A stretch of 64,000 nt of DNA from positions 7,877-71,876 of the forward strand of contig NZ_JBKEEV010000007.1 in the NCBI RefSeq assembly GCF_047777555.1. The letters run 5' to 3'. The notes below the pieces were generated by a model. That model was not told where the DNA came from. It made no database searches and saw nothing but the letters and a program-made list of their open reading frames with translations. This document shows, piece by piece, positions 1 to 23,295 of the stretch. Both the position numbers and the translations under genes were made by a program. Every line of letters starts with the position of its first letter. Position 1 is the stretch's first letter. The stretch is from Clostridium sp. (GTDB lineage Bacteria; Bacillota; Clostridia; Clostridiales; Clostridiaceae).

Positions 1-474
1 ATGATATCCTGATGCCCAACCAATGCTCGGATTGATATTATATTTATCTTTTATATCTTTTAGTCTATTTGAAGCATTTAATATACTTTTTTCATCATTC
101 ATAATGGTTTCCTCTTCAACTACACTCTTCACTGCTTTACAGCTAACTACATCTTTGTCATGTATAGTCACTATATAGTGTTGATCTGTTTTAGGAACAG
201 CGAAATCTAAATTCCAAAATCTTCTTTTTCCGTCTACACCTTCATTCATATCTTTTAATTTTGGATCATCAACACTACTGATATAGCATACTTGAGCATT
301 TTTATTTAATTTTTTTACTGTCAATAATGATAATTTATAAGCCTCATACATATTTATTGGCTTGAAAGCTACAGCATGTACAGTTTTTGGGCTGCCAAAT
401 ATATTTTTATAGTTCATTGCTAATATAACTATTCCTAATAAGATTAATATACAAAAGGCGATCTTTTTAAACAT
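1..474 (-). CDS. Hypothetical membrane-anchored or secreted protein; the 3' end runs off the window
   Basis: Not in the ORF track. My reverse-complement translation from ATG (472-474 is cat) is open all the way to position 1: MFKKIAFCILILLGIVILAMNYKNIFGSPKTVHAVAFKPINMYEAYKLSLL... It has a hydrophobic N-terminus, and an AGGAAGTGA Shine-Dalgarno lies just upstream. Confidence 0.6.
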   Translation of the reverse strand, partial: MFKKIAFCILILLGIVILAMNYKNIFGSPKTVHAVAFKPINMYEAYKLSLLTVKKLNKNAQVCYISSVDDPKLKDMNEGVDGKRRFWNLDFAVPKTDQHYIVTIHDKDVVSCKAVKSVVEEETIMNDEKSILNASNRLKDIKDKYNINPSIGWASGYH

Positions 475-638
475 CAAATCACTTCCTCATACATTAATTA
501 TCGCAATTTATGTAACATTATATACTAATTTTACATTTATTTTCTACTTATGTAAATATATTTTATTATTACCATCTAATTTTTTATGCTATATAACAAA
601 AATAAGCCCACACTAAAAACACAGGCTTATTTCTATAT

Positions 639-1034
639 TTACTCTGATTTATGAATAAAATTAATTACTTTTGTACTTTCTGGACTAGTTTCTATAGTTA
701 TCGTATCCGTGCCTAGAGGTGGATTATGTGCTCCAGTAAAAGTATTTATCTGTATTATAACCCTATAAGTAAATGCTTCACTTGGCTTATCAATACTAAG
801 TATTTTAGCATCAAACAAATCAAACTGTTTATTAGTACCATAATAGTCATAAACTGCTTTAGTAATAAACGGATATGCAAATGACAATAAAGCTTCATTA
901 CAATAATTAGCAGCTACTTTCTCTAACTGAATTTCCTTTTTTTCGCTAAAGGCTTTTGTTTTTCCACTGCAACAAAGTGCACACATAGTAATAGTGATCA
1001 TAAAAACTACTACAGTATATACTATTTTTTTCAT
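639..1034 (-). CDS. Small secreted or lipoprotein-like protein (DUF3888-like, recalled from memory)
   Basis: 131-aa ORF with a signal-peptide-like N-terminus (MKKIVYTVVVFMITITMCALCCSGK). A GGAGGTG RBS lies upstream. The TFTGAHNPPLGTDTIT motif resembles DUF3888. A hairpin at ~603-631 follows the stop. Confidence 0.6.
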   Translation of the reverse strand: MKKIVYTVVVFMITITMCALCCSGKTKAFSEKKEIQLEKVAANYCNEALLSFAYPFITKAVYDYYGTNKQFDLFDAKILSIDKPSEAFTYRVIIQINTFTGAHNPPLGTDTITIETSPESTKVINFIHKSE

Positions 1035-1306
1035 TATAACTGCAACACCTCCTTTTACTTATAGTTATTATGTTATTATTTCACTGTAATATTCACATTA
1101 CTTTTAAATTTGAAAGGAGATTACTTTGTAGTACAACTTAATATTAAATTAAAAATGTATGCCTTATATTTTTTGCTTTTAAAGTTATATGTAGTATATA
1201 ATAGATATATCTGTATACTTTGTTTTACATTGTAAACCCTACTTATTTTCACATAATTATAAAGTGCTTGCTTTTTGCGTTTGAAATTTAATACTAAAAT
1301 CATCAA

Positions 1307-1919
1307 ATTTGACTTATCTCTGAAACTGACTAACTTGACGTCCTTAGTCCCGCTTTCATTATAAAAGCCTCATTACTACTGCGAATCCATCTGTACCTAT
1401 GCTAAATTCATGCCATCCTTTGCCGTTCATCATCTAGGCAGTAAACAGATTTCCTCTAGACTTGTCTCGAAAGCCACATAAAGTTTTGGTTTTGACTGCA
1501 CTTATGAGTCTTAACGAAGCTTCAACAGTTCTTCATTTTCGTTCAGCTTTACAATACATACCTTACTGTTTTATACCGCCTTTTCCTAATTGTGCTCAGT
1601 ACCACAACTTTTAATTATAGTACTCAATTGTGTTTTGTGGTCTGTACCTACATATCGACCACGGTAGGCCAACTATCATCTCTTAAAAAGCATTGTCTCA
1701 CTAAATACTTCTAGCATTCAGGGAACACTATGTGCTAAACTACTATTGTCTATTATTAACATACCTTCATTGTTGGTAACAATCGTTAAACTCACCACCA
1801 TTTTACATTAGAAGTATCTTTTTTCTATTCAACGTTAAAAGCCATTTAGGACCACAGGAAGAACCAGCAGTATTTATTAACCCAAAGATCAATAGCTTAA
1901 TAAATAGTGCTATCGACCT
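1307..1919 (-). ncRNA. Candidate large structured non-coding RNA (or decayed sequence) downstream of topB; class not recognised
   Basis: There is no ORF of 60 aa or more in any frame. By hand count, two 60-nt blocks give about 38% and 45% G+C, visibly above the flanks. The minus strand is purine/G-rich. Local hairpins: 1328-1349 and 1769-1783. Interleaved pseudoknot-type pairing: gtggtc 1637-1642 with gaccac 1657-1662, and cctac 1647-1651 with gtagg 1664-1668. Confidence 0.3.
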
Positions 1920-4088
1920 TTATATCGTGTTAATAAATTCCATTTTCCATCTATAATATCCAGTTTCTATATTTATTTCATATCTTAAATATGCTGAAAA
2001 AGAAGTTCCTTTCTTACTTTTTAGATTTCTAAAACCAACTTTTCCATTTTTTAATAATAACTCTACCATATCTTTACTTACAGTTTTACCTAAAGATTTA
2101 ATAAATTTATCATTTTTCCAAATAGTGTAGTCACATCCATTCTTCCAGTTAATACATCCGAACCCCTTATCGCTTTCAATTATGTCATTACCACACACAG
2201 GGCACTTACCAACACTCTGTACACCTTCTGGAATCTCCACCTTAAAGTGTTTAAGCATAGAGTTGTCTTTCTTAATATCATCAATTGCCTTAACTGTAAA
2301 TTCCTTAATCATATTTAAAAAATCATTTTTTCTAAATTTACCTTTTTCAATATCATATAATGTTTTTTCCAGTCTACCTGTATATTCTAAATCCAATAAT
2401 TCCTTAACTGGAAATATTTCTATCAAAGTCCTCCCCAGTTCTGTGCAAGTGAGACTTTTTCCTTTAGTCTTTATGTACCCAACATCTTTTAACTTTTTAA
2501 TAGTTTCAGCTCTTGTTGCTGGTGTCCCAATACTAAATCCACTTAATATTGATGACATCATTTCTTCTGTATCATCTTCATCTTCTTTATACCCCTTACC
2601 ACAAGTCTCCATAACTCTTAGAAGAGTTTTCTCTGTATGTAACTTAGGAGGTTTCAGAGTAACAGTATTAACTTTAGAATCAACAATATCAATAATTTCT
2701 TTTTCAACTACAGCAGGTAATATATTATCTTTACTTTCTATATTTTCAATTACACGCCATCCTTCAACTATTTGAACCTTTCCCTTAGAAATGAATACTC
2801 CATTTATATTTTCATCATATACTTTGGCAGTGATCTTAGTTTCTTCAAATTCTGCTATAGGCATAAATTGCATTAAAAATCTATTTTTTATAGCCTCATA
2901 GACTATACTTTCATCACCAGTTAATTTCGATGGTTTTATGTAAGTAGGTACTATAGCACTATGACTCTCTACCTTAGAATTATCAAATATTCTCTTACTT
3001 TCAATAAATTTAATTTCATTTTCATAAGGTAATCCTTTTTTTAATATATCTAATACTTTTTTTGTTCTATCCTTTAGGCTTTCCTCCAGTGCTATACTTC
3101 CTGTTCTTGGATATGTTATAAATTTCTTTTCATATAAAGACTGAGCTACTTTTAAAACTTTATCAGATGTCCATCCCTTATGCTTACTTGTTATATATCC
3201 TTGTAAATTAGATAAATTGAATAAATATGGTGCATAATCCTTTTTTCTTTCAACCTGTTTTTCTATGACTTCAGCATTTTTAGTTTTTATAATTTCTGAA
3301 TAACTTTTTAATTTCACCTCATCATCGAACTTTTCAGAGTTTTTCTCATAATAAGTTGATTCAAATTCAATGTTATCTTTTGTCTTGAAATTTACAATTA
3401 ATTTATAATATTTAGTAGCCTTGAAGTCCTCATTTTCTTTATCTCTGTCATATATTATTTTTAAAGTTGGTAACAAAACTCTACCTACGTTTAATATTTT
3501 CTTATTATTGGGACTATATCTTAATGTTGACACTGATGTTAAATTTATTCCTATTATCCAATCAGCCCATTGTCTACCTATACCTGCATCCGTAAGATGC
3601 TGCATCTCTTCATTTTGCTTAATAGATTTTAATCCATTTAAAACTTCATTTGGAGTCCATTCATTAAGTAATAGCCTATATACGGGCTTATTTGTACCTA
3701 TATACTTAACTAATATATCCCCAATAATTTGCCCCTCTCTATCAAAATCGCAGGCTGAAATTATACTATCTACATCTTCCCTGTTCGCTAGTGTACTTAT
3801 AATCGAAATCTGCTTTTCTGCCCCTTTATCATTTTTATTCTTATTAACAGGGTCACATTTAATTTTATATTTAAACTGCTTTGGTATAAAAGGAAATTTG
3901 CTCAATTGCCACCTTGCCATTTCTATATCATAATCTTTAGCATCATATAGCTGCAGCAAATGTCCAAAGGCCCAGGTAACAATAAAGTCGTTTCCTTCGT
4001 AGTATCCATCTTTTCTTATCTTTATCTTTAGAGCATCTGATATATTTTTTGCAACTGATGGTTTTTCTGCAATAATTACCTTAGCCAT
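1920..4088 (-). CDS. topB: DNA topoisomerase III (type IA)
   Basis: 722 aa. Toprim acidic motif CDFDREGQ, active-site region FITYPRTGS, and a C-terminal zinc-ribbon (CPVCGN...GCINWKNGCDYTIW). RBS AAGGTGGTGGA. Confidence 0.9.
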   Translation of the reverse strand: MAKVIIAEKPSVAKNISDALKIKIRKDGYYEGNDFIVTWAFGHLLQLYDAKDYDIEMARWQLSKFPFIPKQFKYKIKCDPVNKNKNDKGAEKQISIISTLANREDVDSIISACDFDREGQIIGDILVKYIGTNKPVYRLLLNEWTPNEVLNGLKSIKQNEEMQHLTDAGIGRQWADWIIGINLTSVSTLRYSPNNKKILNVGRVLLPTLKIIYDRDKENEDFKATKYYKLIVNFKTKDNIEFESTYYEKNSEKFDDEVKLKSYSEIIKTKNAEVIEKQVERKKDYAPYLFNLSNLQGYITSKHKGWTSDKVLKVAQSLYEKKFITYPRTGSIALEESLKDRTKKVLDILKKGLPYENEIKFIESKRIFDNSKVESHSAIVPTYIKPSKLTGDESIVYEAIKNRFLMQFMPIAEFEETKITAKVYDENINGVFISKGKVQIVEGWRVIENIESKDNILPAVVEKEIIDIVDSKVNTVTLKPPKLHTEKTLLRVMETCGKGYKEDEDDTEEMMSSILSGFSIGTPATRAETIKKLKDVGYIKTKGKSLTCTELGRTLIEIFPVKELLDLEYTGRLEKTLYDIEKGKFRKNDFLNMIKEFTVKAIDDIKKDNSMLKHFKVEIPEGVQSVGKCPVCGNDIIESDKGFGCINWKNGCDYTIWKNDKFIKSLGKTVSKDMVELLLKNGKVGFRNLKSKKGTSFSAYLRYEINIETGYYRWKMEFINTI

Positions 4089-4100
4089 ACTTCCACCACC

Positions 4101-4661
4101 TTACTTTTGCTTTTTATCCTTGGTAGGTAATATTTCAACATTTGTTATATTACTATCCTTCATTATATTTTTCAAGTTTTTAATTATTTTATCTTTTTCA
4201 TCTATAATACTCTGTATTTTTTCTTTATCCTCTGTTAGCCTTAATATTTCTTTTTTATAATTTTCAACTTCAACTCTCAGTACATTAACATAGATAATAT
4301 TATCAAGAACCTTATCATACTGTCCTTTTATTTCTTTTAACTCCATATGTAATTGCTCAACTTTTCTTTCAGTAAAATAATCATCTTCATCCTGAATGCA
4401 TTTTTCAATATACTGCTCTAATAACTTGTCATTATAAACAGTTTTTCTAGTAAAACTCGTATTTTTTGAATTAGCAATATAAGATTTACTTAATTTTAGC
4501 TTCTTTATTTCTACTATTAGTTTCTGAATTTCAGCATGAGAATTCATCACAAGATTTTCTATTTCAAATAACCTCTTCTGAGTCTTAGCGTCTAGTTTTT
4601 CGTATGATGGATAATTTATTGCGCTAAGCTTATCATTGATAATTTGCTCTATTCCATCCAT
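4101..4661 (-). CDS. Coiled-coil protein in the TnpC position of a Tn554-type module
   Basis: 186 aa, highly charged with heptad-like sequence. Its start overlaps the stop of the upstream recombinase by 13 nt, as tnpB-tnpC do in Tn554-type elements. No recognisable catalytic motif. Confidence 0.55.
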   Translation of the reverse strand: MDGIEQIINDKLSAINYPSYEKLDAKTQKRLFEIENLVMNSHAEIQKLIVEIKKLKLSKSYIANSKNTSFTRKTVYNDKLLEQYIEKCIQDEDDYFTERKVEQLHMELKEIKGQYDKVLDNIIYVNVLRVEVENYKKEILRLTEDKEKIQSIIDEKDKIIKNLKNIMKDSNITNVEILPTKDKKQK

Positions 4662-6688
4662 GGCCCTATTTCCTTTCTTATATTGTCTAAATTTAATAAT
4701 ACTTCACCTATTTGAGGATATTTGTGTAAAATTGGATTTTGTCCAATTTTATTAATATCTTTATTCAGAAGCACAATTTGCTCCATTAAATTATTTCTCA
4801 CAAATATCTTTAATGCTTTCTCTTCTCTCTCGAATTCTAACATATAACTTTCATCTTCTTCAGCAATTTTTCTATTATGATTTACAATTGAAACTTTTTG
4901 ATGGAATCTTTCATATGAAAAATGAATGTATCTATAAGTAGGCAATGTATTTTCTAAAAAGTAGCTATCTGAAATGGAACTAAAATACTTCCTTCTTTCA
5001 CATAATCCACTTATAGTGGATCTAATACATATTCCCAGTTCATTTTCTACAATAGACGAATCTGTCTTATCTAGTAATTTAATGATTTTCCCTAGATCAT
5101 CTCTTATATTTAGCTTGCTACTTTTTAAAAAGTCATTGATCTTTTCTATATTGATTTTAAATTCCTCATTTTTCATTTCATTTTGAAGAAATTTGTTATT
5201 TATTAAATCAGGATTTGTTTCTATTAAACCTTCTACATTAGCAATACTTGACAATATATTTGTACCTTCTTCTAAAGAATCTATAAAGTCTTCACTTTTA
5301 TTATAGTAAGCACTCATATCTTCACTAAGATGATTTAAATGTTTAACTATAAAATCTAAATGAACACCTTGCATAAATAATTTAGTGCACACGGTAACCC
5401 TGAACATATGTGGATTTACATAATAAAATCTTTTATTCTTCACTTCTTCGAAGGAGAGATGATTTCTCTTTTCCAGTGAGAAATACTTTTCATACTTTGA
5501 TTTACTTTGAATCTTCAGTATTTTAAGATTTTCTTTTTGATTGTAAGGCATTGTTTCTATACTAAAATCATTTTCATGTCTAATAAAAAAACGCTCTAAA
5601 TTTTCTCTTAAAGGTACAATCCCCTTTTTTTGTAAGCCAGTTTTAGCACTAGTAAATAAATATCTTGTACTCTCTAGTTCTAGTTCCTTTAGCCTATCAT
5701 CATCTATCTCTGATATCATTTTCCTGAGCTCTTCCAAAGTTATAGGTCTCTTTAAGTCTTTCTTTGTGTGTAGAGTTATTAGTAGCCTTAACTTTGTCTT
5801 TTCAGAAAGATTTTCAATTATATTCTTAACTAAATTTTCACAGGTTCTGTAAGCCTTTAATGCTTTATCACTTAATGCAGTATAAGTTTCTCGAGTTCCT
5901 GATTTAAAAGTTAAAAATTTCAAATAACACAACTCTGTACCATTTACTACTATAGTATCAAGCTTATTTGTTTCTAATAAGCTCACTTCTTCTGCCCTCA
6001 TTCCTGTCTCAGCTAATAAGATCATTAGGCAAGCCATTATCCTATCATCCAGCTTCAATTTTTCATTATCTACGTCTTTAATTGCTAATGAGACTACTTC
6101 ATTTAAAAATTGATCTGGGATGTATTGATTTGCTGATTTGCTTGATCTTTTTTTAGTGCATGAACTAATTACTTTGTTTAGATAATTAACTATGTTTTCT
6201 AAATTATATCCATTAATATCTATAATAGAGTTTATCAATTTTTTAATTGAAATCGCTAATCCTCCTACATGATAGTTACCGCAATTTTTAAGCTTTTTTT
6301 CTATATATAACTCAATGATAGCTTTATCAATTAATCTAACATCTTTAATATTATATTTATATAAATCTTTTGTTAATCTTTGCAAATGTTCTTTTAGTTT
6401 ACTTGTACTTGTATAGCTATTTTTCTTTTTATTTAGCTCTTCAAATATAACAACTTTTATATAAAATATAAATGGCTCAGGTATAAAATTAAAGTCAAAC
6501 TTATATTTATATCTTTGACGATTATTAACATTCATTTCACTAAAATCCCATACCATATCACTAAACCATGTATTATTATTAATTTTGAAATTTATCCATT
6601 TTTTCTTTGCTTTATATACTTTCTTTGAATAATTATATTGAACAATAGAATTGTTATTAAAGTTATAATTTATTGCCTCTCTACTCAT
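4649..6688 (-). CDS. Large tyrosine recombinase (TnpB-like)
   Basis: 679 aa. Catalytic Arg region LLAETGMRAEEVSLL, the HxxR box PHMFRVT, and C-terminal HLNHLSEDMSAYY carrying the nucleophile Tyr. Confidence 0.8.
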   Translation of the reverse strand: MSREAINYNFNNNSIVQYNYSKKVYKAKKKWINFKINNNTWFSDMVWDFSEMNVNNRQRYKYKFDFNFIPEPFIFYIKVVIFEELNKKKNSYTSTSKLKEHLQRLTKDLYKYNIKDVRLIDKAIIELYIEKKLKNCGNYHVGGLAISIKKLINSIIDINGYNLENIVNYLNKVISSCTKKRSSKSANQYIPDQFLNEVVSLAIKDVDNEKLKLDDRIMACLMILLAETGMRAEEVSLLETNKLDTIVVNGTELCYLKFLTFKSGTRETYTALSDKALKAYRTCENLVKNIIENLSEKTKLRLLITLHTKKDLKRPITLEELRKMISEIDDDRLKELELESTRYLFTSAKTGLQKKGIVPLRENLERFFIRHENDFSIETMPYNQKENLKILKIQSKSKYEKYFSLEKRNHLSFEEVKNKRFYYVNPHMFRVTVCTKLFMQGVHLDFIVKHLNHLSEDMSAYYNKSEDFIDSLEEGTNILSSIANVEGLIETNPDLINNKFLQNEMKNEEFKINIEKINDFLKSSKLNIRDDLGKIIKLLDKTDSSIVENELGICIRSTISGLCERRKYFSSISDSYFLENTLPTYRYIHFSYERFHQKVSIVNHNRKIAEEDESYMLEFEREEKALKIFVRNNLMEQIVLLNKDINKIGQNPILHKYPQIGEVLLNLDNIRKEIGPWME

Positions 6689-6695
6689 AGAAATA

Positions 6696-8443
6696 CTATC
6701 CTTTCAGTTTCTGCATTTTATACATTTCAGCCAGAAACTTACCTAGCAATTTTTTTTGAATACTTAACTCTTTAATTTCTATTGGATTAAAAGATTTTTC
6801 AATAATTTTATTATATTCCAATATTTGTTGCTCAAAGTACGGGATTCTATTGATAAAAGTTACAAAAGACCTACACATTAAACACTCAGCAACATCAAAA
6901 GTACAGTGACCATTTTTGCATTTTCCTAAGTTTTTCTTTACAACTTTATATTTATTCTCCTTCTCAACCTCTAATATATTTCCGTATATATCCACATCAG
7001 AAATAGTCACTTTAGCCATAGCTTCAACATATAATTCTATCTCACTGTATTTTCTATAATACATGTTAGCAGTCTTATAACTATTTCCTGTAATACTAGT
7101 AATTTTGTTTATTGATAAATTATTTTGTACACCCATTTTATATACTGAATTAATAAAAAGTATGTCGAATATTATAAGGAAAATAATCTTTTATCTCGAG
7201 CTTCTCCTCTGACAGCTTTCAATATTGCCTTAAAATACCTATAGAAATTAATTCTTTTAACTTTAGTAACATGTTTTGCTCTATAAGGCTCAACGAATAT
7301 ATATTGTGCCATTATATCATTTCCTGAAATATAGGGTTCAGTTAAATTAATTGCTTCATCTATTAAAGCTGCTACATTTTCTGATATATTCTGCATTACA
7401 AATTCTTTATTACTTGTTTTTGATAAATATTTTAATTTTACATGTTCTTTTTCTTTATTTAAACAATCTCTTCTTAAATTATATATTTCGCCAATACGCA
7501 AATTTGTTAACATAAATATTTCATAAAGAATAGTATATAATCTTCCATTTTGAACTATCGATTCTTGTTTTTCAAACTGCTTATAAATAATACTTGCATC
7601 TTTTTCACTAATTGGTGTACCACCATCAAATTTTCCAAGTCCCTTTAAATTTAAAATATCTAAATCATTCTCTGTAACATTATACTTATCTTTGAAACAT
7701 TTCATGTATTTTCTAACTATTTTAAGTATTCCCTTTAGATGTCCATTTGACTTTACTGTATTCTCTATTGTACTTCTAAAATCCCATAAAAAATCTTCAG
7801 AAAATTCCTTGTATGAATTATTTAAATCCAATGCTATATTTACATACAGTTGATCATGGTTAACCTTGAAGTTTAAAAATTCAATTAGTTTATACATGTA
7901 GGTATTTGTAGTTCTTATATCTCCATCAATTTTCCATATAAAGTTTTTTACATCATTCTTATACTTTTGCGGCACATTTTCAAGATTTATAGCAGCAATC
8001 CTATAATTATTTCCACTTGAATTTAATAGTGTTTGAATAGAAGGAAGTACACAATACTTATCAGATTCAGGTGGCAATTCTAATCTATTATGATAAACAA
8101 AACAAAATCCTTTCTCATAATATTTATAAAAACTTTTTGAATAGATTACCTGCTTAAAACTTTTGCAAAATACATTATTATAATCTAGTTCTTCTAGCCT
8201 ATTAATAAAGTATCTATAGAATGCTACAAGATTTTGCTGTAACTTTTTAACATTAATTATAAGTTTTTTCTTTCTGTAATCATTATCCATCTTCTGATAA
8301 AACTTATACTGCAAATTAAAAGTTTGCTCATCAATATCTTCATATCTCTCTAGACGCTTTTCCCCTAAGCTTTCTACAAAATAATAAATAAAAATTCTCA
8401 TTTCCTTTGACTGTAAGCGTTCAGATTTATTATAGGATAGCAA
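6696..8443 (-). pseudogene. Tyrosine recombinase disrupted by two frameshifts (ORFs 7172-8443 and 6696-7136)
   Basis: The 423-aa ORF has the Arg-I region (LTNLRIGEIYNL) but ends before box II. The next frame reads LSEEKLEIKDYFPYNIRHTFY*. The third frame continues INSVYKMGVQNNLSINKITSITGNSYKTANMYYRKY (the 146-aa ORF, which has no RBS). Read together the three pieces give a normal recombinase C-terminus. Confidence 0.7.
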
Positions 8444-8471
8444 GAAGTTAGTAAGTATATTTCTTATAAAT

Positions 8472-9134
8472 TTACAACCTGTTTCTTATATTAAAATTTG
8501 CGTTCAAAATAGAATCCTTATTCTTTGTTGAATAATATTCTACTTGAATTACTTCGTTATAGTTGGATTCTAGTGGAAAGTTGCTTAAAATATTTCTTTC
8601 TAAATTTAAATATTCATTATCTGTTTCAATAGTTAAACTTTCATAATTTGAGTAGTTTAATAGCAAATGCTTATATTCATTTACTTCTTTAATATTTTTC
8701 ATAGACTTATATCTTACATTATTGCAAAGTAATAAATAAAATTTATTAAGAATATCATAAAAGTCTAAATGCCCTACCATAAGCTTCTTTTTTTCATAAT
8801 ACTTAAATAATCGTTTTATAGATACACCTATTTCTTTCCTTTTATAATATCTTATTGCTTCACTTAATTTATCGTTAAAATTGCTATTATGTAATTCACA
8901 AATTACGTTCCAGTTAAGATCACTTATCTTATAGTTTTTCATATAATTAATTATATAAAACCATCCTACAATCCTTTTATACATTTGCATGCTATATAAA
9001 AATGTATTACCTTTATAAAAGTCATCATATAGAAATCTTGATAACTCTTTCTTCATATCTATATATTCTACTGTAGAATTGATACATTGTTGCAAATCAC
9101 TCATATACTTTTTTAAAGTATCTTTATCAATCAT
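8472..9134 (-). CDS. Hypothetical protein carried by the element
   Basis: 220-aa ORF with an AGGAGA RBS. No recognisable motif. Lies between two recombinase genes. Confidence 0.5.
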   Translation of the reverse strand: MIDKDTLKKYMSDLQQCINSTVEYIDMKKELSRFLYDDFYKGNTFLYSMQMYKRIVGWFYIINYMKNYKISDLNWNVICELHNSNFNDKLSEAIRYYKRKEIGVSIKRLFKYYEKKKLMVGHLDFYDILNKFYLLLCNNVRYKSMKNIKEVNEYKHLLLNYSNYESLTIETDNEYLNLERNILSNFPLESNYNEVIQVEYYSTKNKDSILNANFNIRNRL

Positions 9135-9191
9135 TTCTATTATCTCCTAGTGTTACCTTTTATTTTATCAAGTATCTCCTTTTGTATTTTT

Positions 9192-10265
9192 TCAGTTTTC
9201 CTTTAATTGATCCTCAGGTTTAGGATTATAATACTTCAATGTAGACTGTATACTTTTATGTCTCATTTCTTTTTGAACATAAGAGATATCTTTATTTAAT
9301 TCATCAATCAAATACATAGCATATCCATGTCTAAATCTATGATTTAAATTATCCTCCTTACTATTCTTATCTATCGAAATACCTATCTTAATAAAAATCT
9401 CTTTGAGAAAATTATTCCATCCTGAAGGTGATAATGGACTTCCATTCTTGTTTAAAAATAGGTAGTAATTTCTTCTTGTATTTTCTCCTACACAGTCTGC
9501 CTTCGCATATTTCATGATATTTTCCAATTTTCTTTCCGTTTGATTTAGAATATCTCTAGATATTTCTTGATATTTTCTGACTTCATCCATTAATTTTATT
9601 GGCAAAGCCACAACCTGATACCCACCTTCTCTTTCACTATTATAGATTTTTGTCTTATACATTTCTGAAGAAAAAACCTTCATGCACCCTTTTGCATGTT
9701 GATATTTCTTATCACTTACTCTATTTCTCAAGTAAAGTTGACCTGCTCTCTTATCATCGGGATGAGGAATAATGTCCTCTAATGTAATTCCTAATACTTC
9801 ACCAATCCTCAATCCTCTTAAAAACATTAGATCTATAATCAATTTATTCCTTAATTTAAACTCTGATCTGACATTTTCATCAATGTATTCCAAAACTCTA
9901 GTATATTCTTTAACTGAAATATACTTAGGAACATATTGATTAAAACCCTTATGCCTTGATTTATTTGTTGTATATTTGCTTGTCACAATTACTTTATTTG
10001 CACTATAGCTAATTTTATCAGTGACAAATTGTACCTTATCAAAAAATTCATTTTTATTAAATCTAGAAAACATTATATACTTTCTGATGTCATCAAAGTA
10101 TGTATTATGAGTTGTTATTGTCCTATTAGTCTTAAATATATACCTTTCAATATTTCCTTCTATATTATGGCCTAAAATAAAATGTGATAAATTAATAATA
10201 TCTGTCTTGTCAAGTTCCTGTATTTCCCTTCCAATAATTTCACTAAAAGAATATAATAACTTCAA
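9192..10265 (-). CDS. Tyrosine recombinase (TnpA-like); the true N-terminus probably extends upstream
   Basis: Motifs: LRGLRIGEVLGI (Arg I), HRFRHGYAMY (HxxR) and MRHKSIQSTLKYY (His/Tyr). The same frame stays open upstream to ~10517 and encodes a core-binding-like segment (FLLNSKGEVIEEVFNYLNYY...REQAASALKLLYSF) with no ATG, GTG or TTG. Confidence 0.8.
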   Translation of the reverse strand: MKLLYSFSEIIGREIQELDKTDIINLSHFILGHNIEGNIERYIFKTNRTITTHNTYFDDIRKYIMFSRFNKNEFFDKVQFVTDKISYSANKVIVTSKYTTNKSRHKGFNQYVPKYISVKEYTRVLEYIDENVRSEFKLRNKLIIDLMFLRGLRIGEVLGITLEDIIPHPDDKRAGQLYLRNRVSDKKYQHAKGCMKVFSSEMYKTKIYNSEREGGYQVVALPIKLMDEVRKYQEISRDILNQTERKLENIMKYAKADCVGENTRRNYYLFLNKNGSPLSPSGWNNFLKEIFIKIGISIDKNSKEDNLNHRFRHGYAMYLIDELNKDISYVQKEMRHKSIQSTLKYYNPKPEDQLKEN

Positions 10266-10438
10266 TGCACTTGCTGCTTGTTCTCTACCTGAAAGAACTA
10301 CGCTTGCACAATAATAATTTAAGTAATTAAATACTTCTTCGATTACTTCTCCTTTTGAATTAAGTAGAAATACATAATGGAAATTCTCATACTTCTTACT
10401 AACTCTTACAATGCTTACTTTTCTTACAAGTTCATCAT

Positions 10439-10498
10439 CTATATTAAATTTAATAATATGAATGCAATGCAGGAAATACCAAAATTTTTCAATTTCAT
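10439..10498 (-). pseudogene. 19-codon 5' remnant of a methyl-accepting chemotaxis protein paralog
   Basis: MKLKNFGISCIAFILLNLI* aligns with [21 protein letters not shown] of the intact MCP (16981-18879). The flanking DNA aligns too: the same RBS region and the same glpK terminator. Confidence 0.75.
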
Positions 10499-10520
10499 GG
10501 TAATTTGTCCCCTTTATTTA

Positions 10521-10563
10521 ATAATACAAGATGAACTTCTATAGCAATTCATAGAAGTTCATC
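10521..10563 (-). terminator. Intrinsic terminator of glpK copy 1
   Basis: Perfect 13-bp stem gatgaacttctat / atagaagttcatc, followed by a T-rich tract on the minus strand. The same hairpin recurs after glpK copy 2. Confidence 0.75.
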
Positions 10564-10587
10564 CATAGTATAATATAGTTTAATCAG

Positions 10588-12090
<1,503 letters not shown>

Positions 12091-12168
12091 CTAAGTTAAA
12101 CCTTAAAATTAAATTATTATATTCATAAAATCATTTAAAACTTAACTTATATAATATTTAAAAATTAA

Positions 12169-12873
12169 TTAAAATACACCTACAAATAAGAATGCCCCAA
12201 TTAATCCACCTATTATTGGTCCTATTACTGGTATCCATGCATATCCCCAGTCTGAATCTCCTTTTCCTGCTATTGGAAGTATTGCGTGAGCTATACGTGG
12301 TCCTAAGTCTCTTGCTGGGTTTATAGCATATCCTGTAGGTCCACCTAATGCAAGACCGATAATTAATATTACTAATCCTACTGCTAATGTTCCAAGTCCA
12401 TCTGTCATCTTAACTTGGCCAAGTCCTAAAATACTAAATACTAATACGAAAGTTCCCACAATTTCTGTAATAAGATTTGCTGCTGAATTTCTAATAGCTG
12501 GTGCTGTTGCAAATACTCCAAGCTTTGCTGCCTTGTCTTCTGTAGCTTCCCAGTGTGGCAAATATGCGATCCATACTAATGCTGCTCCAACAATAGCACC
12601 TAACATTTGAGCTACTATATATCCTGGAACTAGTGCCCAATCAAAGTTTCCAATTGCAGCTAATGCTATTGTAAGTGCTGGATTAAAGTGTGCTCCACTT
12701 GCTGCTCCAAAAATCCATGCTGGAACTGCTACTGCACATGCCCATGCTACAGTTATTACTATCCATCCTGCATTCTGCGCTTTACTCTTGTTAAGAGTTG
12801 TGGCTGCACACACTCCATCTCCTAGTAGAATTAACATCATTGTGCCTAAGAATTCTGCTAAATAACTTGACAT
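12169..12873 (-). CDS. glpF: Glycerol uptake facilitator, MIP family (copy 1)
   Basis: 234 aa with two NPA boxes (HFNPALT, INPARD) and hydrophobic repeats. Confidence 0.95.
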   Translation of the reverse strand: MSSYLAEFLGTMMLILLGDGVCAATTLNKSKAQNAGWIVITVAWACAVAVPAWIFGAASGAHFNPALTIALAAIGNFDWALVPGYIVAQMLGAIVGAALVWIAYLPHWEATEDKAAKLGVFATAPAIRNSAANLITEIVGTFVLVFSILGLGQVKMTDGLGTLAVGLVILIIGLALGGPTGYAINPARDLGPRIAHAILPIAGKGDSDWGYAWIPVIGPIIGGLIGAFLFVGVF

Positions 12874-12943
12874 AATAATTCCCCCTTAATTTAAAAAATT
12901 TATATATCATTTCACATTTATATAAATATGAAATGAACATAAC

Positions 12944-13026
12944 GAAATCGTTTACGCAGGTTAAAAAGAGCATTATCAAGAAAGAGTTTATTTCTCTCTC
13001 CTAATAATGGCTCTCATCTCTCCGCC
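12944..13026 (-). promoter_or_regulatory. glpF1 leader: terminator hairpin plus conserved 5' motif (GlpP-type antitermination target) and a cre-like site
   Basis: Stem agagcattat 12967-12976 with ataatggctct 13004-13014, followed by a U-run on the minus strand. Motif ggctctcatctctccgcc lies at 13009-13026. gaaatcgtttac at ~12945-12956 resembles cre. Confidence 0.5.
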
Positions 13027-13030
13027 AAGA

Positions 13031-13411
13031 TTATTCATCTTTATCTACGCACTTTACACTCTTTGTTGCTATAACATCTACACCAGTTCCTACTACATTT
13101 TGTATAATTACATCTCCTATATTTATAGGTGCCTTTACCTTTATCCCTTTAAGAGCTTTCATACATTCATATATCTTCTCTTTAGGGATATCCTTCTTCG
13201 TTTTTACTGAAACTACACCTAATTCTCCGTTCTCTATTTCAACAGTTGAAGTAACTATTCTCGTAGGATTAGTACATTCTTTCTCAGCATAAGCAACACC
13301 CTTAACACAGCTATTGCCTTTAACCTCTATAACCTTTTTATCTTCTAGTGTAACTTCTAAAGCACACCCCATAGGGCATCCTATGCATGTAAGTTCTATA
13401 TTTTCCCTCAT
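13031..13411 (-). CDS. DUF1667 domain protein (copy 1)
   Basis: 126 aa with the CIGCPMGC motif. Third gene of the dehydrogenase triad. Confidence 0.8.
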   Translation of the reverse strand: MRENIELTCIGCPMGCALEVTLEDKKVIEVKGNSCVKGVAYAEKECTNPTRIVTSTVEIENGELGVVSVKTKKDIPKEKIYECMKALKGIKVKAPINIGDVIIQNVVGTGVDVIATKSVKCVDKDE

Positions 13412-13415
13412 AATA

Positions 13416-14675
13416 CTACACTCCTTCCACCTTTACTATGATTTTCTTACAGTCAGGATAATTTTCAAACATACTCTTTGTAAGCTTTAAGGTTTGCATT
13501 TCTCCAGGAGTTAGTATTTTCTTATTTATATGCATAGTTCTTTCCCCATCAAAATAAAGAGAAATATATTTGTCTTTATATACGTTATTTACTCTGAATC
13601 TTAGGTCAACAAACTTATCCACATTGTTTATATTAATATATTTTGGAACTGTATAAGTTATTCCATCTAGTGGTAAAACTTCTATTCCTTTTTCATCGAA
13701 AGATTTTCCTTTCACATATCTTGCTGCATTTTTACCAGCATTTATACTTTCCTCAGTAACATTGTCTACTAAATCATGAACGTGAAGCACATTTCCACAA
13801 GCAAAAATTCCATCTATATTTGTCTGGAGACTTTCATTAACTTCTGGTCCTCCTGTAACGCTGGACATTTCAACCTGCGCCTTCCTTGAAAGCTCATTTT
13901 CTGGAATTAAGCCTACTGATAGCAATAGAGTATCACAAGGAATATATTCTTCTGTCCCTTTTATAGGCTTTCTATTTTCATCAACCTTTGCAATAGTAAC
14001 CCCTTCAACTCTATTCTTTCCTTTTATTGATACAACTGTATGAGATAATTTTAAAGGAATATTATAATCATCTAGACATTGAACTATATTTCTCTTAAGT
14101 CCACTAGAATAAGGCATAAGTTCTACAACAGCCTTAACCTTTGCTCCCTCTAAAGTCATTCTTCTTGCCATTATAAGTCCTATATCACCAGAGCCTAAAA
14201 CAACTACTTCTTTTCCTGGCATATATCCATCTATATTTACAAATTTCTGAGCTGTTCCTGCACAATATATACCAGCACATCTATCCCCTGGAATACCTAT
14301 AGCTCCTCTTGGCCTTTCACGACATCCCATAGCTAAGATTATAGCCTTAGCCTTAATTTCTAAAATTCCGTCCTCTTCATTTACTGCTGTTATAACTTTG
14401 TCTTTATTAATATCTATTACCATAGTATTCAATTTATGCTCTATTTTTAAATCCCTTATCTTATCTATAAATCTTGCAGCATACTCTGGTCCTGTTAGCT
14501 CTTCTTTAAAAATATGAAGACCAAAGCCGTTATGAATACACTGATTTAAGATTCCTCCTAGTTTATTATCTCTTTCTAATATTAGTATATTGTCTATGCC
14601 TTCTTCTTTAGCTCCTACAGCTGCTGCAAGCCCTGCAGGTCCAGCGCCTATTATTACCACATCATATTCTTTCAT
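13416..14675 (-). CDS. FAD/NAD(P)-dependent pyridine nucleotide-disulfide oxidoreductase (copy 1)
   Basis: Two dinucleotide-binding motifs (VVIIGAGPAGLAAA, VVVLGSGDIGLIMA). ATG at 14675 is preferred because it follows a GGAGGA RBS. Confidence 0.85.
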   Translation of the reverse strand: MKEYDVVIIGAGPAGLAAAVGAKEEGIDNILILERDNKLGGILNQCIHNGFGLHIFKEELTGPEYAARFIDKIRDLKIEHKLNTMVIDINKDKVITAVNEEDGILEIKAKAIILAMGCRERPRGAIGIPGDRCAGIYCAGTAQKFVNIDGYMPGKEVVVLGSGDIGLIMARRMTLEGAKVKAVVELMPYSSGLKRNIVQCLDDYNIPLKLSHTVVSIKGKNRVEGVTIAKVDENRKPIKGTEEYIPCDTLLLSVGLIPENELSRKAQVEMSSVTGGPEVNESLQTNIDGIFACGNVLHVHDLVDNVTEESINAGKNAARYVKGKSFDEKGIEVLPLDGITYTVPKYININNVDKFVDLRFRVNNVYKDKYISLYFDGERTMHINKKILTPGEMQTLKLTKSMFENYPDCKKIIVKVEGV

Positions 14676-14704
14676 TTTTCTATCCTCCAAAAAATTAATA
14701 TGGT

Positions 14705-16138
14705 TTATATTTCTTTGTTTTTACCTACAAGAAGGTTAGACTTTCCTCCAAATAAGGTTACATCCTCTGGACTTAGGTTTAGTTCCTCTGCCAAAATATG
14801 AAGCACCTTATTTGAGCAGAATCCACTTTGACATCTTCCCATACCAGCCCTTGTTCTTCTCTTAACTGCATCTATGTTTCTTGCACCAAGAGGTCTTCTT
14901 ATAGCCTCTACTATTTCTGCTTCTGTAACTGTTTCACATCTGCACACTACTCTTCCATACCTTGGATTTTTCTTTATTGCTTCTATTCTTTCTTCTTCAG
15001 TCATATCCCTAAACTTTGGTATTCCTTTTCTTATTGGATTAAACTTTTCATTTTTGCTTGGATGTAACTTTTCAACAACAATGCCTGCTATCATCTCTGC
15101 AATGGCAGGTGAACTTGAGAGCCCTGGCGATTCAATTCCTGCTGCATTTATAAATCCTTCTACATCCTCTGCTTCTCCTATTATAAAGTCTCCAGTATTT
15201 CCCCTTGCTCTATTTCCTGCAAAAGACTTTATAAGGTATTTCATAGGGATATTTTTAAAGGTTATTTTAGCCTTATCTATAACGTCATCCAATCCTTCTC
15301 TTGTATTTGATAAATCTCTTTTATCTTCAATATCATCTGCATTTGGTCCTATTAACAAGTTTCCATCTACTGTTGGGGTTACTAATATTCCTTTTCCAAG
15401 CTTGGTTGGTAATTGGAACAATGTCATCTTTGCCATATTGCCAACCACTTTATCAAATAAGCAGTATTCCCCTCTTCTTGGCATTATCTTTATCTTATTT
15501 TTACTTACCATATTATTTATATCATCTGAGAACAATCCTGCTGCGTTTATTACAAGCTTACTCTCTATTTCTTCTTTAGAAGTTTTGATTACAAACTTAT
15601 CCTCTATCTTATTTATTCCTATAACTTCTGTGTCAAGTTTAAATTCCACTCCATTTGTAGCTGCGTTTTCTGCAAGAGCAATGGTCATCTCATATGGACA
15701 CACAATTCCTCCTGTAGGTGCATATAATGCAGCATATACATTATCATTTATGTTTGGTTCTAATTCTAATATTTTTTCTTTGTATATTATTTGAAGATCT
15801 GGAACTCCATTTTTTTCTCCTCTTTCTTTTAGCTCTAATAAATTAGGCATTTCCTCTTCATTAAAGCATAAAACTAAAGACCCATTTCTCTTAAATGGAA
15901 AGTCAAGTTCCTCTACCAATTTGTCAAACATAGCGTTGCCTTTCGCATTCAATATTCCCTTTAGAGTACCAGGTTTAGCATCATAACCAGCATGAACTAT
16001 GGCACTATTGGCTTTTGTGGTTCCAACAGCCACATCTGACCCCTTTTCCACTACACAAACTTTTAAATTATATTTAGCAAGTTCTCTAGCAGTAGAGCAG
16101 CCTACAACTCCTGCTCCAATTATAGTTACATCAAACAT
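14705..16138 (-). CDS. FAD-dependent glycerol-3-phosphate dehydrogenase/oxidase-like protein with a BFD-like [2Fe-2S] domain (copy 1)
   Basis: 477 aa. N-terminal FAD-binding motif (VTIIGAGVVG) and C-terminal CRCETVTEAE...GRCQSGFC. Confidence 0.85.
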   Translation of the reverse strand: MFDVTIIGAGVVGCSTARELAKYNLKVCVVEKGSDVAVGTTKANSAIVHAGYDAKPGTLKGILNAKGNAMFDKLVEELDFPFKRNGSLVLCFNEEEMPNLLELKERGEKNGVPDLQIIYKEKILELEPNINDNVYAALYAPTGGIVCPYEMTIALAENAATNGVEFKLDTEVIGINKIEDKFVIKTSKEEIESKLVINAAGLFSDDINNMVSKNKIKIMPRRGEYCLFDKVVGNMAKMTLFQLPTKLGKGILVTPTVDGNLLIGPNADDIEDKRDLSNTREGLDDVIDKAKITFKNIPMKYLIKSFAGNRARGNTGDFIIGEAEDVEGFINAAGIESPGLSSSPAIAEMIAGIVVEKLHPSKNEKFNPIRKGIPKFRDMTEEERIEAIKKNPRYGRVVCRCETVTEAEIVEAIRRPLGARNIDAVKRRTRAGMGRCQSGFCSNKVLHILAEELNLSPEDVTLFGGKSNLLVGKNKEI

Positions 16139-16218
16139 AGCATAACCTCCTTTTATAAATCTAGTTCCTCATCTTAGTGGATTTTTTCCACCTTAATTTT
16201 AGAACTGGTTATCTAAAG

Positions 16219-16980: not shown

Positions 16981-18879
16981 CTATAATATCTTTCTAATTA
17001 CATCATATTTCTCATCACTGCTCTCTATGAATTCATCAATAGGTGTTTTAAACATTTTTAGATCCTTAGTATTTATAAAAGCTTCCTTAACTTTATTTAT
17101 AAGTTCTGGCTGCATTCTTGGATTTACGGCTATTGCATCTTTCGGTATATCTTCTGTTTCTTTAATTATAACAATATCCTCAACCCTTAACCCATTAATC
17201 CTTGCATTATCTATTGCTTCACTATAAGTAGCTCCTGCATCTATCTCTCCTGATAAAACTGCTTTAATAACATTATCATGACTTCCCATAAAATAAACTT
17301 TATTGAAAATTTTTTCAGGATTTAGGTTGTTAGATTTTAACATATGTTTAGCATACAAGTATCCAGAAGCACTATTTTGATCTACATATCCAAAATTCTT
17401 GCCTTTTAAGTCTTTTAAATTTTTTATATTGCTGTCTTTTCTAGTGATTATATATCCTTTATAGTATGCCTTTCCATTTACTTTAGGAGTAGCTATTGGC
17501 AGTACTCCTGCCTTTTCATGGGCATTCACATAGGCAAATGGAGAAAACCATCCTAGATCAATTATATCTTCCTTTATACTGCTGCTTAAAGCATCGTAGT
17601 CCTTTACAATTATAATTCTAGGTTTATATCCTATACACTTAAATATATGTTCTAATATAGGTACGTACATATTCTTTATATTTTCTGGAGATGTAAATGG
17701 ATTAATACCGATAATTATTTCATCACTTCTTTTTAATTTCACTGATATTTTTTGAAGTTTTTCCGATATCTCTCTCAATTGATTAAACTGTAAAGCTATT
17801 TCCTCATTTTTCGTTTTTTGATAGTTTATGCTTTCAATAGATTCATAGGATAGTTTATGAGTATCTTCTATAGCTTTTGACATACCTTCAACTGCCGCTT
17901 CGATTTCCGTGGATGTATATAATACCTGAGAAGACATAGACTGTAAATTTTTTATAGAATTATTGATATGTTCTACAATGACTTTTATCTCATCAATGGC
18001 ATTAGTCGACTGGTTTACTATTTCTTCTACTTCATTTATCTTTTCATTACATTTTTCTATTGCTTTATTTGAGTATACTACCTTTTCAGATGTATCGTCA
18101 ACTATCTCTTCTATCTGTGAAATATGAACATGAGTCTGTTCTGAAAGCTTCTTTATTTCATTTGCCACAACTGCAAACCCTCGTCCTACTTCTCCTGCTC
18201 TTGCAGCTTCAATAGCTGCATTTAAAGATAATAGATTGGTCTGATTAGATATTTGTTTTATATAATCCACTACTTTATATATATTATTAGAAGATTCTAT
18301 GAATTCTTCATTGCTTTTAGAAGCATTGCTAACTTCTTTTGCAAGCTCTTCTAAAAAAACGCTTATACCTTCTATAGTATCTCTATTTTTTTCTAACATT
18401 TCTACAGACCTTAATGAATAGTTCCGTATATCTTCAACGCTCTTATTTAAATCTCTAGAAAATGATACAAATTCATTAATACTAGCATTTATTTCTTCTG
18501 CAGCTGCTGCATTTTGCTGGCTATAATTCTCTACCTTATGAGATATATCATAAGATTTGTTAAAAATAGAAGTATTTTTATCTGCAACCCATAATAATTG
18601 CTGTACATTGAAGCCAATAGCTTCTGATGCAGAAAGTAATTCCTCTTTTATCCCATCATCGACTCCAATATCTTTATTATATGGTATATTATTACAAATG
18701 GTAGCATTAAAATCTAAACTTTTACTAAAAAGTTTAATAGATATAGCAAATATAGCTATGTCCCCCAAAAGCGATATTATAAAATATAGAATATTGTGAA
18801 AAATACAAAAATATAAAATTAAATTTAACAATATAAAGCCGCCGCAAGAAATGCTAAATTTTTTTAATTTCATGCTCAT
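16981..18879 (-). CDS. Methyl-accepting chemotaxis protein with a C-terminal PhnD-like substrate-binding domain
   Basis: 632 aa. N-terminal TM segments, MCP signalling hairpin ([35 protein letters not shown]), and a C-terminal ~250 aa resembling phosphonate-type periplasmic binding proteins. Confidence 0.8.
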
Positions 18880-18919
18880 TTATCCCCTTTAAATATTTAT
18901 CCTTATTATAATAATATAA

Positions 18920-18953
18920 GATGAACTTCTATAAAAATTCATAGAAGTTCATC
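18920..18953 (-). terminator. Intrinsic terminator of glpK copy 2
   Basis: Same 13-bp stem as at 10530-10563 (gatgaacttctat / atagaagttcatc). Confidence 0.75.
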
Positions 18954-18975
18954 TATAATAGTATAATTTACTCAG

Positions 18976-20472
<1,497 letters not shown>

Positions 20473-20545
20473 TTAATATTCCCCCCATAACTTATATTTG
20501 TAAATGTTTACACCATCTATATAAAAACTTCATTAGATATTTATA

Positions 20546-21250
20546 TTAAAATACACCTACAAATAAGAATGCTCCAATTAATGCACCTATTATTGGTCCT
20601 ATTACTGGTATCCATGCATATCCCCAGTCTGAATCTCCTTTTCCTGCTATTGGAAGTATTGCATGAGCTATACGTGGTCCTAAATCTCTTGCTGGATTTA
20701 TAGCATATCCTGTAGGTCCACCTAATGCAAGACCAATAACTAATATTACCAATCCTACTGCTAATGTTCCAAGTCCATCTACCATTTTAACTTGACCAAG
20801 TCCTAAAATACTAAATACTAATACGAAAGTTCCCACAATTTCTGTAATAAGGTTTGCTGCTGAATTCCTAATAGCTGGTGCTGTTGCAAATATTCCAAGC
20901 TTTGTTGCCTTATCTTCTGTAGCTTCCCAGTGTGGTAAGTATGTTATCCATACTAATGCTGCTCCAACTATAGCACCTAACATTTGAGCTATTATATATC
21001 CTGGAACTAGTGCCCAATCAAAGTTTCCAATTGCAGCTAATGCTATTGTAAGTGCTGGGTTAAAGTGAGCTCCACTTGCTGCTCCAAAAATCCATGCTGG
21101 AACTGCTACTGCACATGCCCATGCTACAGTTATTACTATCCATCCTCCACCCTGCGCTTTACTTTTGTTAAGAGATGTTGCTGCACATACCCCATCTCCT
21201 AGTAGAATTAACATCATTGTGCCTAAGAATTCTGCTAAATAACTTGACAT
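20546..21250 (-). CDS. glpF: Glycerol uptake facilitator (copy 2)
   Basis: 234 aa with NPA boxes, nearly identical to copy 1. Confidence 0.95.
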   Translation of the reverse strand: MSSYLAEFLGTMMLILLGDGVCAATSLNKSKAQGGGWIVITVAWACAVAVPAWIFGAASGAHFNPALTIALAAIGNFDWALVPGYIIAQMLGAIVGAALVWITYLPHWEATEDKATKLGIFATAPAIRNSAANLITEIVGTFVLVFSILGLGQVKMVDGLGTLAVGLVILVIGLALGGPTGYAINPARDLGPRIAHAILPIAGKGDSDWGYAWIPVIGPIIGALIGAFLFVGVF

Positions 21251-21402
21251 AATAATTCCCCCTTAACTATAAATAAATTAATATATCTTAAGTTTATGTT
21301 GGAAACATAAACTTAAATTCATTACATGTCCTCAAGGCTTGTCCTTTTTTTAAAATCTCCCTTTCTTTTGTTTTTTTAAATTCTTGAATTATTTTTCTTT
21401 AG

Positions 21403-21497: not shown

Positions 21498-21583
21498 GTT
21501 GATATTTATTTGTAATTTATATTACAGCACTTGTAATCTTTCGCTATTTTTTCTAATTTTTCTTTAATATTATTTTACACCAT

Positions 21584-21955: not shown

Positions 21956-21988
21956 GATATTACCCCCCAACGTGTAAATTCTAACTTC

Positions 21989-23245: not shown

Positions 23246-23295
23246 TTTTCACTCCTCCAAACTCATAGATATATTAGCTATACTAACTTGAAGCA

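Follow-up and report, generated by a model that had tools for sequence, protein, structure and literature searches.

A probable internal relic of a topB-targeting island related to Tn554 in Clostridium sp., and the anatomy of its relatives

The subject of this analysis is a gene series in a 64,000-nucleotide stretch of a Clostridium sp. genome (RefSeq assembly GCF_047777555.1, contig NZ_JBKEEV010000007.1, positions 7,877 to 71,876 of the forward strand). This whole stretch is called the window below, and positions refer to it unless a contig is named. The series begins with genes of tyrosine recombinases and ends with topB, the gene of a topoisomerase III. An earlier sequence-only reading took it for a complete Tn554-like transposon. 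We consider that window positions 1920-10445 are the internal, non-mobile relic of a Tn554-related integrative island that targets topB (probability about 0.85). Here we describe the relic, the ends, target and cargo of its relatives, and the likeness of the family to other elements with several recombinases.

The genes of the series are all co-directional on the minus strand (Table 1). The open reading frame (ORF) map of the window finds them where the sequence-only reading had placed them, and bears out its outline of about nine kb with products of 357, 679 and an overlapping 186 amino acids (aa), a complete TopB and about 610 nucleotides (nt) without an ORF. Pfam detects Phage_integrase in the 357-, 423- and 679-aa products. 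The TopB product has the Toprim, Topoisom_bac and Toprim_Crpt domains, is named topoisomerase III by NCBIfam, and is complete, as claimed. The first gene, A', retains the catalytic R..K..HxxR..H..Y residues. Its product has only sub-threshold Xer (XerC/D) and GmtY matches in NCBIfam; the GmtY match (E 6.6e-15) is below the cut-off, weak and non-specific, and on a par with those to XerC/D. Gene C encodes a conserved S-R-K-T-x-Y-N motif that resembles a helix-turn-helix (HTH), with a coiled coil after it. Only B, C and topB are certain to be intact in the window copy.

Table 1. Features of the gene series and its flanks in the window
Feature	Position	Strand	Remarks
Chemoreceptor (MCP) paralog stub	10439..10498	-	ATG at 10498, 19 codons, then stop; left breakpoint of the relic
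Gene A', TnpA-like tyrosine recombinase, 5'-truncated	9192..10445	-	357-aa ORF 10265..9192; first usable start TTG at 10265
Gene M, middle TnpB-like recombinase paralog, split here	6696..9134	-	811 aa when intact; ORF pieces of 220 aa (9134..8472), 423 aa (8443..7172) and 146 aa (7136..6696)
Gene B, large TnpB-like tyrosine recombinase, intact	4649..6688	-	679 aa; full R-K-H-R-H-Y set
Gene C, small protein overlapping gene B	4101..4661	-	186 aa; TnpC/GinD/Srap position
Element-borne topB, complete, type IA topoisomerase III	1920..4088	-	722 aa; begins 12 nt past gene C
ORF-free tail with group II intron 5' fragment	1375..1919	-	Rfam RF01999
Flank with DUF3888 gene (639..1034)	1..1374		Not shown to belong to the element; includes the right end of the sequence-only reading

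The three pieces of gene M belong to a single gene. In five other samples (L002, L003/L012, L005, L013 and L015; L numbers denote the contigs and loci compared) they form one 811-aa ORF, and the contigs with this intact M encode an identical 679-aa B. Relative to these samples the window has three +1 homopolymer insertions in M (AA to AAA at 8484, G to GG at 7207 and TTTT to TTTTT at 7159), which are shared with one JGI contig (L001/L011) only. The 220-aa product formerly listed as an unknown is therefore the N-terminal third of the middle recombinase. The disrupted recombinase of about 590 aa is part of a gene of 811 aa that includes the 220-aa ORF. Judged from the insertions, the disruption may be either recent decay or long-read homopolymer error. 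Across the family M keeps the box-I Arg, the Lys, the Arg-II and the Tyr, while His-I is replaced by Y or N and His-II by N. It also has a C-terminal Cys cluster, as does TnpB of Tn554. Breaks of other kinds were seen in this lineage: in L013 (Logan SRR24201654) topB is split into 485 and 230 aa and M is split near its end, and in L011 (JGI 3300072661) glpK is split into 116 and 308 aa. These are either independent decay or assembly indels, and frameshifts on single contigs of the lineage need caution.

On its left side the series begins where the second copy of a chemoreceptor gene should go on, as the sequence-only reading had stated. A glycerol operon (a glpP-like antiterminator, two FAD oxidoreductases, DUF1667, glpF and glpK) is present in two copies, 10443..16160 and 18818..24750, that are 75-91% identical, and only the second has an intact chemoreceptor after it. 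Homology between the copies stops at about 10443-10446, some 55 nt into the paralog of the 632-aa chemoreceptor ORF (16981..18879). The reading frame of A is open up to this junction, at about 10445. Upstream of 10265 it contains no ATG, GTG or TTG, and no obvious ribosome-binding site was found. Thirteen A homologues have about 20 extra N-terminal codons (M-K-x-I-K-E...Y-E-V-Y) and 100-300 nt of upstream element DNA. By this alignment the 357-aa ORF is evidently a 5'-truncated A that lacks about 20 codons, the start codon and the left end upstream of it. The junction lies inside gene A and is a deletion breakpoint, not the end of an element. The DNA on its other side is the glpK terminator and the chemoreceptor start, and all contigs that reach the junction have the identical fusion to this stub. 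An exact look-up of the flanking GlpK for an empty site found no record. A circular junction that joins about 1294 to about 10445 was considered as the source of the A start and was rejected; the joined sequence gives a stop and no in-frame ATG, GTG or TTG.

The right side bears directly on the complete transposon of the sequence-only reading, which would span 1284-10455, be bounded by the 10-mer AAATTTAATA, lie in the chemoreceptor paralog and carry only topB and an RNA as cargo. We regard this as almost certainly wrong, although its gene series and Tn554 homology are real, its left boundary coincides with the loss of chemoreceptor-paralog homology and AAATTTAATA does occur at both places. 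The count of the 10-mer is at chance level: the window has six copies where 3.2 +/- 1.9 are expected, and six are reached in 15 of 100 shuffles. One of the six copies (4689) falls inside the element. No chemoreceptor continuation follows the right copy; window positions 1..1500 have no match elsewhere in the window. Four contigs (L004, L008, L009 and L010) match 1..1374 at 99.9-100% and then run into an IS3 insertion sequence (IS) and not into the gene series. The flank 1..1374, including positions 1295-1374 beyond the proposed end, is common to these contigs, and so that end at 1284-1294 lies inside shared sequence. Added to this are the missing start and first 20 or so codons of A and the absence of the left and right ends that characterize the family (see below).

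The same stretch of DNA has received other insertions. In other strains an IS3-family element is inserted at 1374/1375, inside the intron remnant, and in one an IS4-like element is inserted at 1186/1187; the latter contig (L006) matches window 1..1186 and then enters the IS4-like element. Since the intergenic stretch is an IS hotspot, no empty site can be read from it. A candidate right end at about 1214-1236 (TTTACAATGTAAAACAAAGTATA) was rejected, as it is out of register with the true right ends of the family and has no topB after it. The tail behind topB has no ORF, as described. The possible RNA cargo seen there is a group II intron 5' fragment, with a domain-I segment at 1560-1677 on the minus strand (RF01999, 71 bits). 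The Rfam search found no intron domains V/VI (D5/D6) or other RNA in the tail, and there is no reverse-transcriptase ORF. The segment is a dead intron fragment and not RNA cargo.

The relationship to Tn554 was addressed with profiles. The reference was a plasmid record (L040) with tnpA, tnpB, tnpC, ant(9)-Ia and ermA, adjoining radC/UPF0758. The A profile aligns with Tn554 TnpA (L040:5953-7038) over 333 columns that cover TnpA residues 3-347 of 361 (hhalign 99.4%, E 6.4e-22); the identity in tblastn is 24.6%. The B profile matches TnpB (96.5%, E 9.7e-10), and so does that of M, C-terminal Cys cluster included (94.2%, E 1.1e-7). M and B match each other at 79.6% (E 1.5e-5). These comparisons support the earlier proposal that the recombinases are TnpA- and TnpB-like, as distant homologues, and identify the extra recombinase paralog that had been noticed as M, a second TnpB-like protein. 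For the gene in the TnpC position, the position is confirmed and an HTH-like motif and coiled coil are present, but homology to TnpC or DUF6262 was not detected: the C profile against TnpC is not significant (1.6%, E 0.03), and a Pfam search of 14 C-family members at E<=1 gives no match to DUF6262 but weak ones to HTH and coiled-coil families.

Relatives of the series were sought through B. The 679-aa protein has 62 word-index homologues, all from Bacillota where named, and 272 representative clusters in an exhaustive search among 1.84 billion proteins, which makes this a rare family. Scanning a single genome for each species gave 18 loci, on which A, M, B, C and TopB were located by tblastn. 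The order A-M-B-C is conserved, and the four-gene module is found in all 15+ loci. In seven of them (L016, L017, L021-L023, L025 and L026) a topB fragment with residues ~1-118 lies directly upstream of A; these come from Bacillus sp., C. magnum, Jeotgalibacillus, Virgibacillus, Terrisporobacter, Acidaminobacter and C. akagii. The Clostridia have a complete topB directly behind C (L017, L018, L023, L024 and L026), as in the window, where A', M, B and C are followed by an intact topB. This conservation upholds the earlier view that topB is a component of the element. Three Bacilli (L020-L022) have a divergent complete topB before A, and the host topB from residue ~117 to its end lies about 6 kb past C.

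The fragments all end past the TOPRIM codons D-x-D/G-R-E (~codons 117-118). After them comes a conserved left end, ..GA(A/G)G|WTATRCTTACTT..TGTGTAA. The right end in Bacilli, TTACACA..AACTTGYTATA, is an imperfect inverted copy of the left end and abuts AGRGAAGGT, with a 7-bp imperfect direct repeat. Host topB is the insertion target of the family, which the sequence-only reading overlooked.

In C. magnum (L017, 5377-5691 vs 12744-13058) and C. akagii (L026, 6249-6602 vs 12494-12847) the displaced 5' piece of host topB shares 88-90% DNA identity with codons 1-118 of the element topB, and the homology reaches 45-80 nt upstream of the ATG. The corresponding identity is only 48% at the DNA level in Terrisporobacter and 81% at the amino acid level in C. 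perfringens. The much higher identity in the first two species suggests that gene conversion took place or that the element captured host topB locally. The Virgibacillus element (L022) has a topB that is 31% identical to the window TopB and stands on the opposite side of the module compared with Clostridia. Between its left end and A are a GIY-YIG fragment (1250-1582), a stand-alone response-regulator receiver (3509-3868) and this divergent complete topB (3966-6128). A more distant A-M-B(-C) clade, with a B identity of 26-31%, occurs in Bacillus sp. OK048, Psychrobacillus, Bacillus sp. Brlt_9 and Lysinibacillus (L027, L028, L030 and L031). Upstream of A it shows neither a topB fragment nor a left end of the TGTGTAA type, and it presumably uses other targets.

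The clearest view of an intact member comes from C. perfringens. Four contigs (L034-L037) have, in order, the host flank, a 124-aa Toprim-only ORF, A (446 aa), M (610), B (677), C (173) and a complete topB (721). Behind it are genes for a 388-aa protein and an Mrr-like protein, a type II CBASS operon, and then a topB ORF without Toprim. The attachment sites attL and attR can be read directly as GATAGAGAGG|TTATACTTACTTTAATATAATGTGTAA and TTACACATATATATAAATAAGTATA|AGAGAAGGACAA. When the two host halves are joined, the reconstructed empty attB 38-mer is found exactly in 11 metagenome contigs. Six of these were checked, and they join L034 1-6713/6715 to 21535-22034 with an overlap of 5-7 nt. This is a clean occupied/empty polymorphism of a 14.8-kb element in C. 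perfringens topB. The element TopB and the host TopB are 75.6% identical.

A 'restoration' model, in which the element brings only the topB promoter and codons 1-118 and has its right end at codon 118, was suggested by C. magnum and C. akagii, where the fragment is 88-90% identical in DNA to the topB downstream. It was rejected because the C. perfringens element has a full topB of its own, cargo of 6.8 kb and a right end, with the 3' part of the host gene standing separately.

Repeats occur near the ends. At the C. perfringens left end (L034:6716-6830) there are two direct copies of TTATACTTACTT(T/A)AATA(T)AATGTGTAA, about 77 nt apart, and at the right end (L034:21334-21534) three direct TGTGTAA copies and a terminal inverted TTACACA. 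A pair of direct repeats (TAGTAGTTAAAGTA..) is also found in Tn554, upstream of tnpA (L040:5835-5950). These repeats are likely recombinase arm sites.

The cargo is variable. It includes Lamassu in Virgibacillus and, as described, CBASS in C. perfringens. An E. faecium plasmid (L039, NZ_CP142416.1, 30710-43483) and eight similar plasmids have an A-M-B-C module of 449, 855, 625 and 147 aa, with a type I restriction-modification system behind it and no link to topB. The four E. faecium genes are annotated only as integrase or hypothetical.

These loci lead to the following picture. A (TnpA-like), the large recombinases M and B (TnpB-like) and the small HTH/coiled-coil protein C would form a four-gene recombination module. 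Intact members integrate site-specifically into host topB, directly after the TOPRIM codons D-x-D/G-R-E (~117-118). The proposed reaction is a recombination between the topB core AGRGARG(G) and attP, whose imperfect inverted ends are WTATRCTTACTT..TGTGTAA on the left and TTACACA..TATA on the right, and it leaves a 5-8 bp imperfect direct repeat. For the C. perfringens element the predicted attP junction is ...AAGTATA-AGAGARG-TTATACTTAC.... Insertion splits topB. Most members bring a complete topB (after C in Clostridia, before A in Bacilli) that presumably takes over from the disrupted gene of the host. Variable cargo, mostly for anti-phage defence, lies behind topB.

Compared with Tn554, the family is alike in that A is a full-length TnpA homologue and B a TnpB homologue, and the large recombinase has a small protein after it. 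Both integrate site-specifically, each with a single conserved housekeeping gene as target, both have imperfect inverted ends, and two direct repeats precede the first gene both in Tn554 and in the C. perfringens element. However, the identity is only ~22-25%, and the module has four genes, with the extra TnpB-like M between A and B, compared with tnpA-tnpB-tnpC. The C protein has 147-194 aa against 125 aa. The target is topB, whereas Tn554 uses radC (att554) in Staphylococcus and Enterococcus. Finally, the topB family brings a replacement copy of its target, and its cargo consists of defence instead of resistance genes.

Set against its relatives, the window copy has neither a left nor a right end, no start of A and no remnant of the target, and is not the complete unit once proposed. 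In a scan of the whole 64 kb the family left- and right-end motifs have only chance-level matches (<=73%). No further piece of topB is present in the window or in the 9.4 kb past its start, and no flanking topB fragment indicates a host gene split around the module. A TopB homologue search for a same-species topB with a different N-terminus found nothing above 76% identity. The genes downstream in L001 are ordinary chromosomal genes. They include a third glpK fragment (L001:13021-14047, 89.6% identical), which lies about 3 kb past the window start in the sister contigs.

For the loss of both sides we picture two events. In the window lineage a deletion would have fused chemoreceptor codon ~18 to A codon ~20, perhaps via A/T-rich microhomology between the chemoreceptor paralog and A, with loss of the left end, the A start and the 5' piece of host topB. 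On the other side, where the intron fragment and ordinary genes now follow the element topB, a further event would have taken away the cargo together with the right end and the 3' piece of host topB.

Could the island be complete and mobile, but larger, with a non-canonical start of A, and with the 3' part of host topB and the right end located more than 11 kb past position 1? The A frame is open to the junction and keeps all that aligns to Tn554 TnpA, B, C and topB are intact, and the right end is more than 7-10 kb from C or topB also in L016, L025, L017, L023 and L026. On the left, however, the terminal motif, its second subterminal copy and the host topB 5' fragment are all missing, and the upstream DNA is instead the glpK terminator and chemoreceptor start. 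No ATG, GTG or TTG and no obvious ribosome-binding site precede the A frame, and the L001 downstream genes are ordinary chromosomal ones that include no topB piece. We consider this version highly improbable.

Several points weigh against an internal relic. Its right boundary may fall anywhere from 1920 to 1374 or beyond, a right end with the 3' part of host topB might be >11 kb downstream, and the IS3 contigs at 1374 do not reveal the sequence beyond the IS. No true empty site for the window locus was found among the contigs compared. No close relative keeps the left end, and the breakpoint in A is placed by protein alignment with homologues that are 32-52% identical. The frameshifts in M may be artefacts of long reads instead of decay. 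Within the family, no element-borne topB is seen in the sequence covered for L016, L019 and L025, making an own topB frequent but not universal, and a stretch of 7-10 kb shows no right end in L017, L023 or L026.

The relic is unable to transpose on its own. Expression of its intact topB, and perhaps of M-B-C, may continue. This raises the question of exaptation, in which the element topB would have become the cell's sole topoisomerase III once the host topB was destroyed, and M-B-C-topB, read from the promoter of the chemoreceptor paralog, would be maintained because it serves the host. The chemoreceptor start and the region upstream of it remain directly in front of the module, no other topB occurs in 73 kb of sequence, and topB, B and C are intact in all contigs except that L013 splits topB, with M intact in five samples. 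On the other hand, 73 kb is all that the sequence covers, so that a second topB may exist in the rest of the genome, and recombinases without ends have no obvious host role. The contigs are ~99.8-100% identical, and intactness may therefore reflect recency. We view exaptation as unlikely. The preferred reading remains a dead internal fragment.

Islands of this type have been glimpsed before. In C. botulinum Group II type F6, topB is split by 34.4 kb of foreign DNA with three contiguous integrase coding sequences at its 5' end (Carter et al. 2013, PMC3673618). A foreign topB begins 529 bp after the integrases. It is intact, is described as 'presumably replacing' the split gene, and has the F6 neurotoxin cluster behind it (PMC3673618). 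A 2016 follow-up treats the F6 topB insertion together with rarA insertions (PMC4824171). Compared by published layout and not by sequence alignment, the F6 island agrees with the topB family: the host topB is split near codon 109-118, the ~530-bp gap has the size of gene C, and the island ends at the topB 3' part. It is complete and has its neurotoxin cluster, while neither end and none of the cargo survives in the window copy. The window object is a decayed member of this island type. The F6 paper (PMC3673618) made no connection between the integrases and Tn554, gave no definition of the ends and missed the fourth gene, and we found no paper that does these things for the topB island.

Other elements resemble the family in layout. 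GInt elements have a 5' operon of three integrases and a small protein, then cargo and a short AT-rich 3' end, with imperfect repeats (2017, PMC5385486). They are likened here by layout and description, not by sequence. Both are tripartite, with cargo that starts right after the small fourth gene and insertion into the 5' part of a gene, and defence cargo has been reported for GInt in E. coli. The layout is seen in the C. perfringens (L034) and Virgibacillus (L022) members and not in the window copy, which has no ends and no cargo. In contrast to the topB family, GInt elements are mostly proteobacterial, with one Firmicute example listed (Roseburia, with a different target). Their degenerate protein is the third (GinC), whereas the deviant of the topB family is the second (M), which keeps R, K, R and Y.

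The SEs of Gammaproteobacteria have the gene order intA-tfp-intB-srap (PMC10214605). By gene order and description, not by sequence, they match the topB family in the order and sizes of an ordinary recombinase, a large middle protein with the recombinase fold, a large recombinase and a small protein, and also in being target-specific and without mobilization genes. However, SEs are reported from Gammaproteobacteria only, Tfp lacks the RHRY motif of which M keeps most, and SEs have a 6-bp footprint and often no empty site, whereas the C. perfringens element has clean empty sites. RIT elements, set apart by description, do not match. They consist of three ordinary-sized tyrosine recombinases with long inverted repeats and no fourth gene, while two of the three proteins in the topB family have 610-855 aa, a fourth gene is conserved and the ends are imperfectly inverted over ~25 nt. 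A literature search for SE or GInt elements in Firmicutes, or for three tyrosine recombinases, found nothing relevant.

The apparent compact and active transposon of the window, with its topoisomerase and RNA cargo, would thus be a dead internal fragment. Its relatives give the anatomy (ends, core, target codons, occupied and empty sites) of an island type noted earlier only as an insertion of 'three integrases + new topB', and link the topB-targeting family to Tn554 by sequence. There is an even chance, in our estimate, that these islands constitute an unclassified Bacillota branch of Tn554/SE/GInt-like elements. Such a branch would have a four-gene module that recognises the DNA of the universally conserved TOPRIM motif D-x-D-R-E-G in topB, a substitute topB, and defence cargo (CBASS, Lamassu, restriction-modification) or, apparently and by layout, the F6 toxin cluster, and the window topB would perhaps be domesticated. 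The relatives show one vehicle at work for CBASS, Lamassu and restriction-modification systems in Clostridia, Bacilli and enterococcal plasmids. By supplying its own topB after destroying that of the host, an island would tie host fitness to its own retention. This design, in which the target is broken and a spare is brought along in two arrangements, is a testable strategy of island retention.

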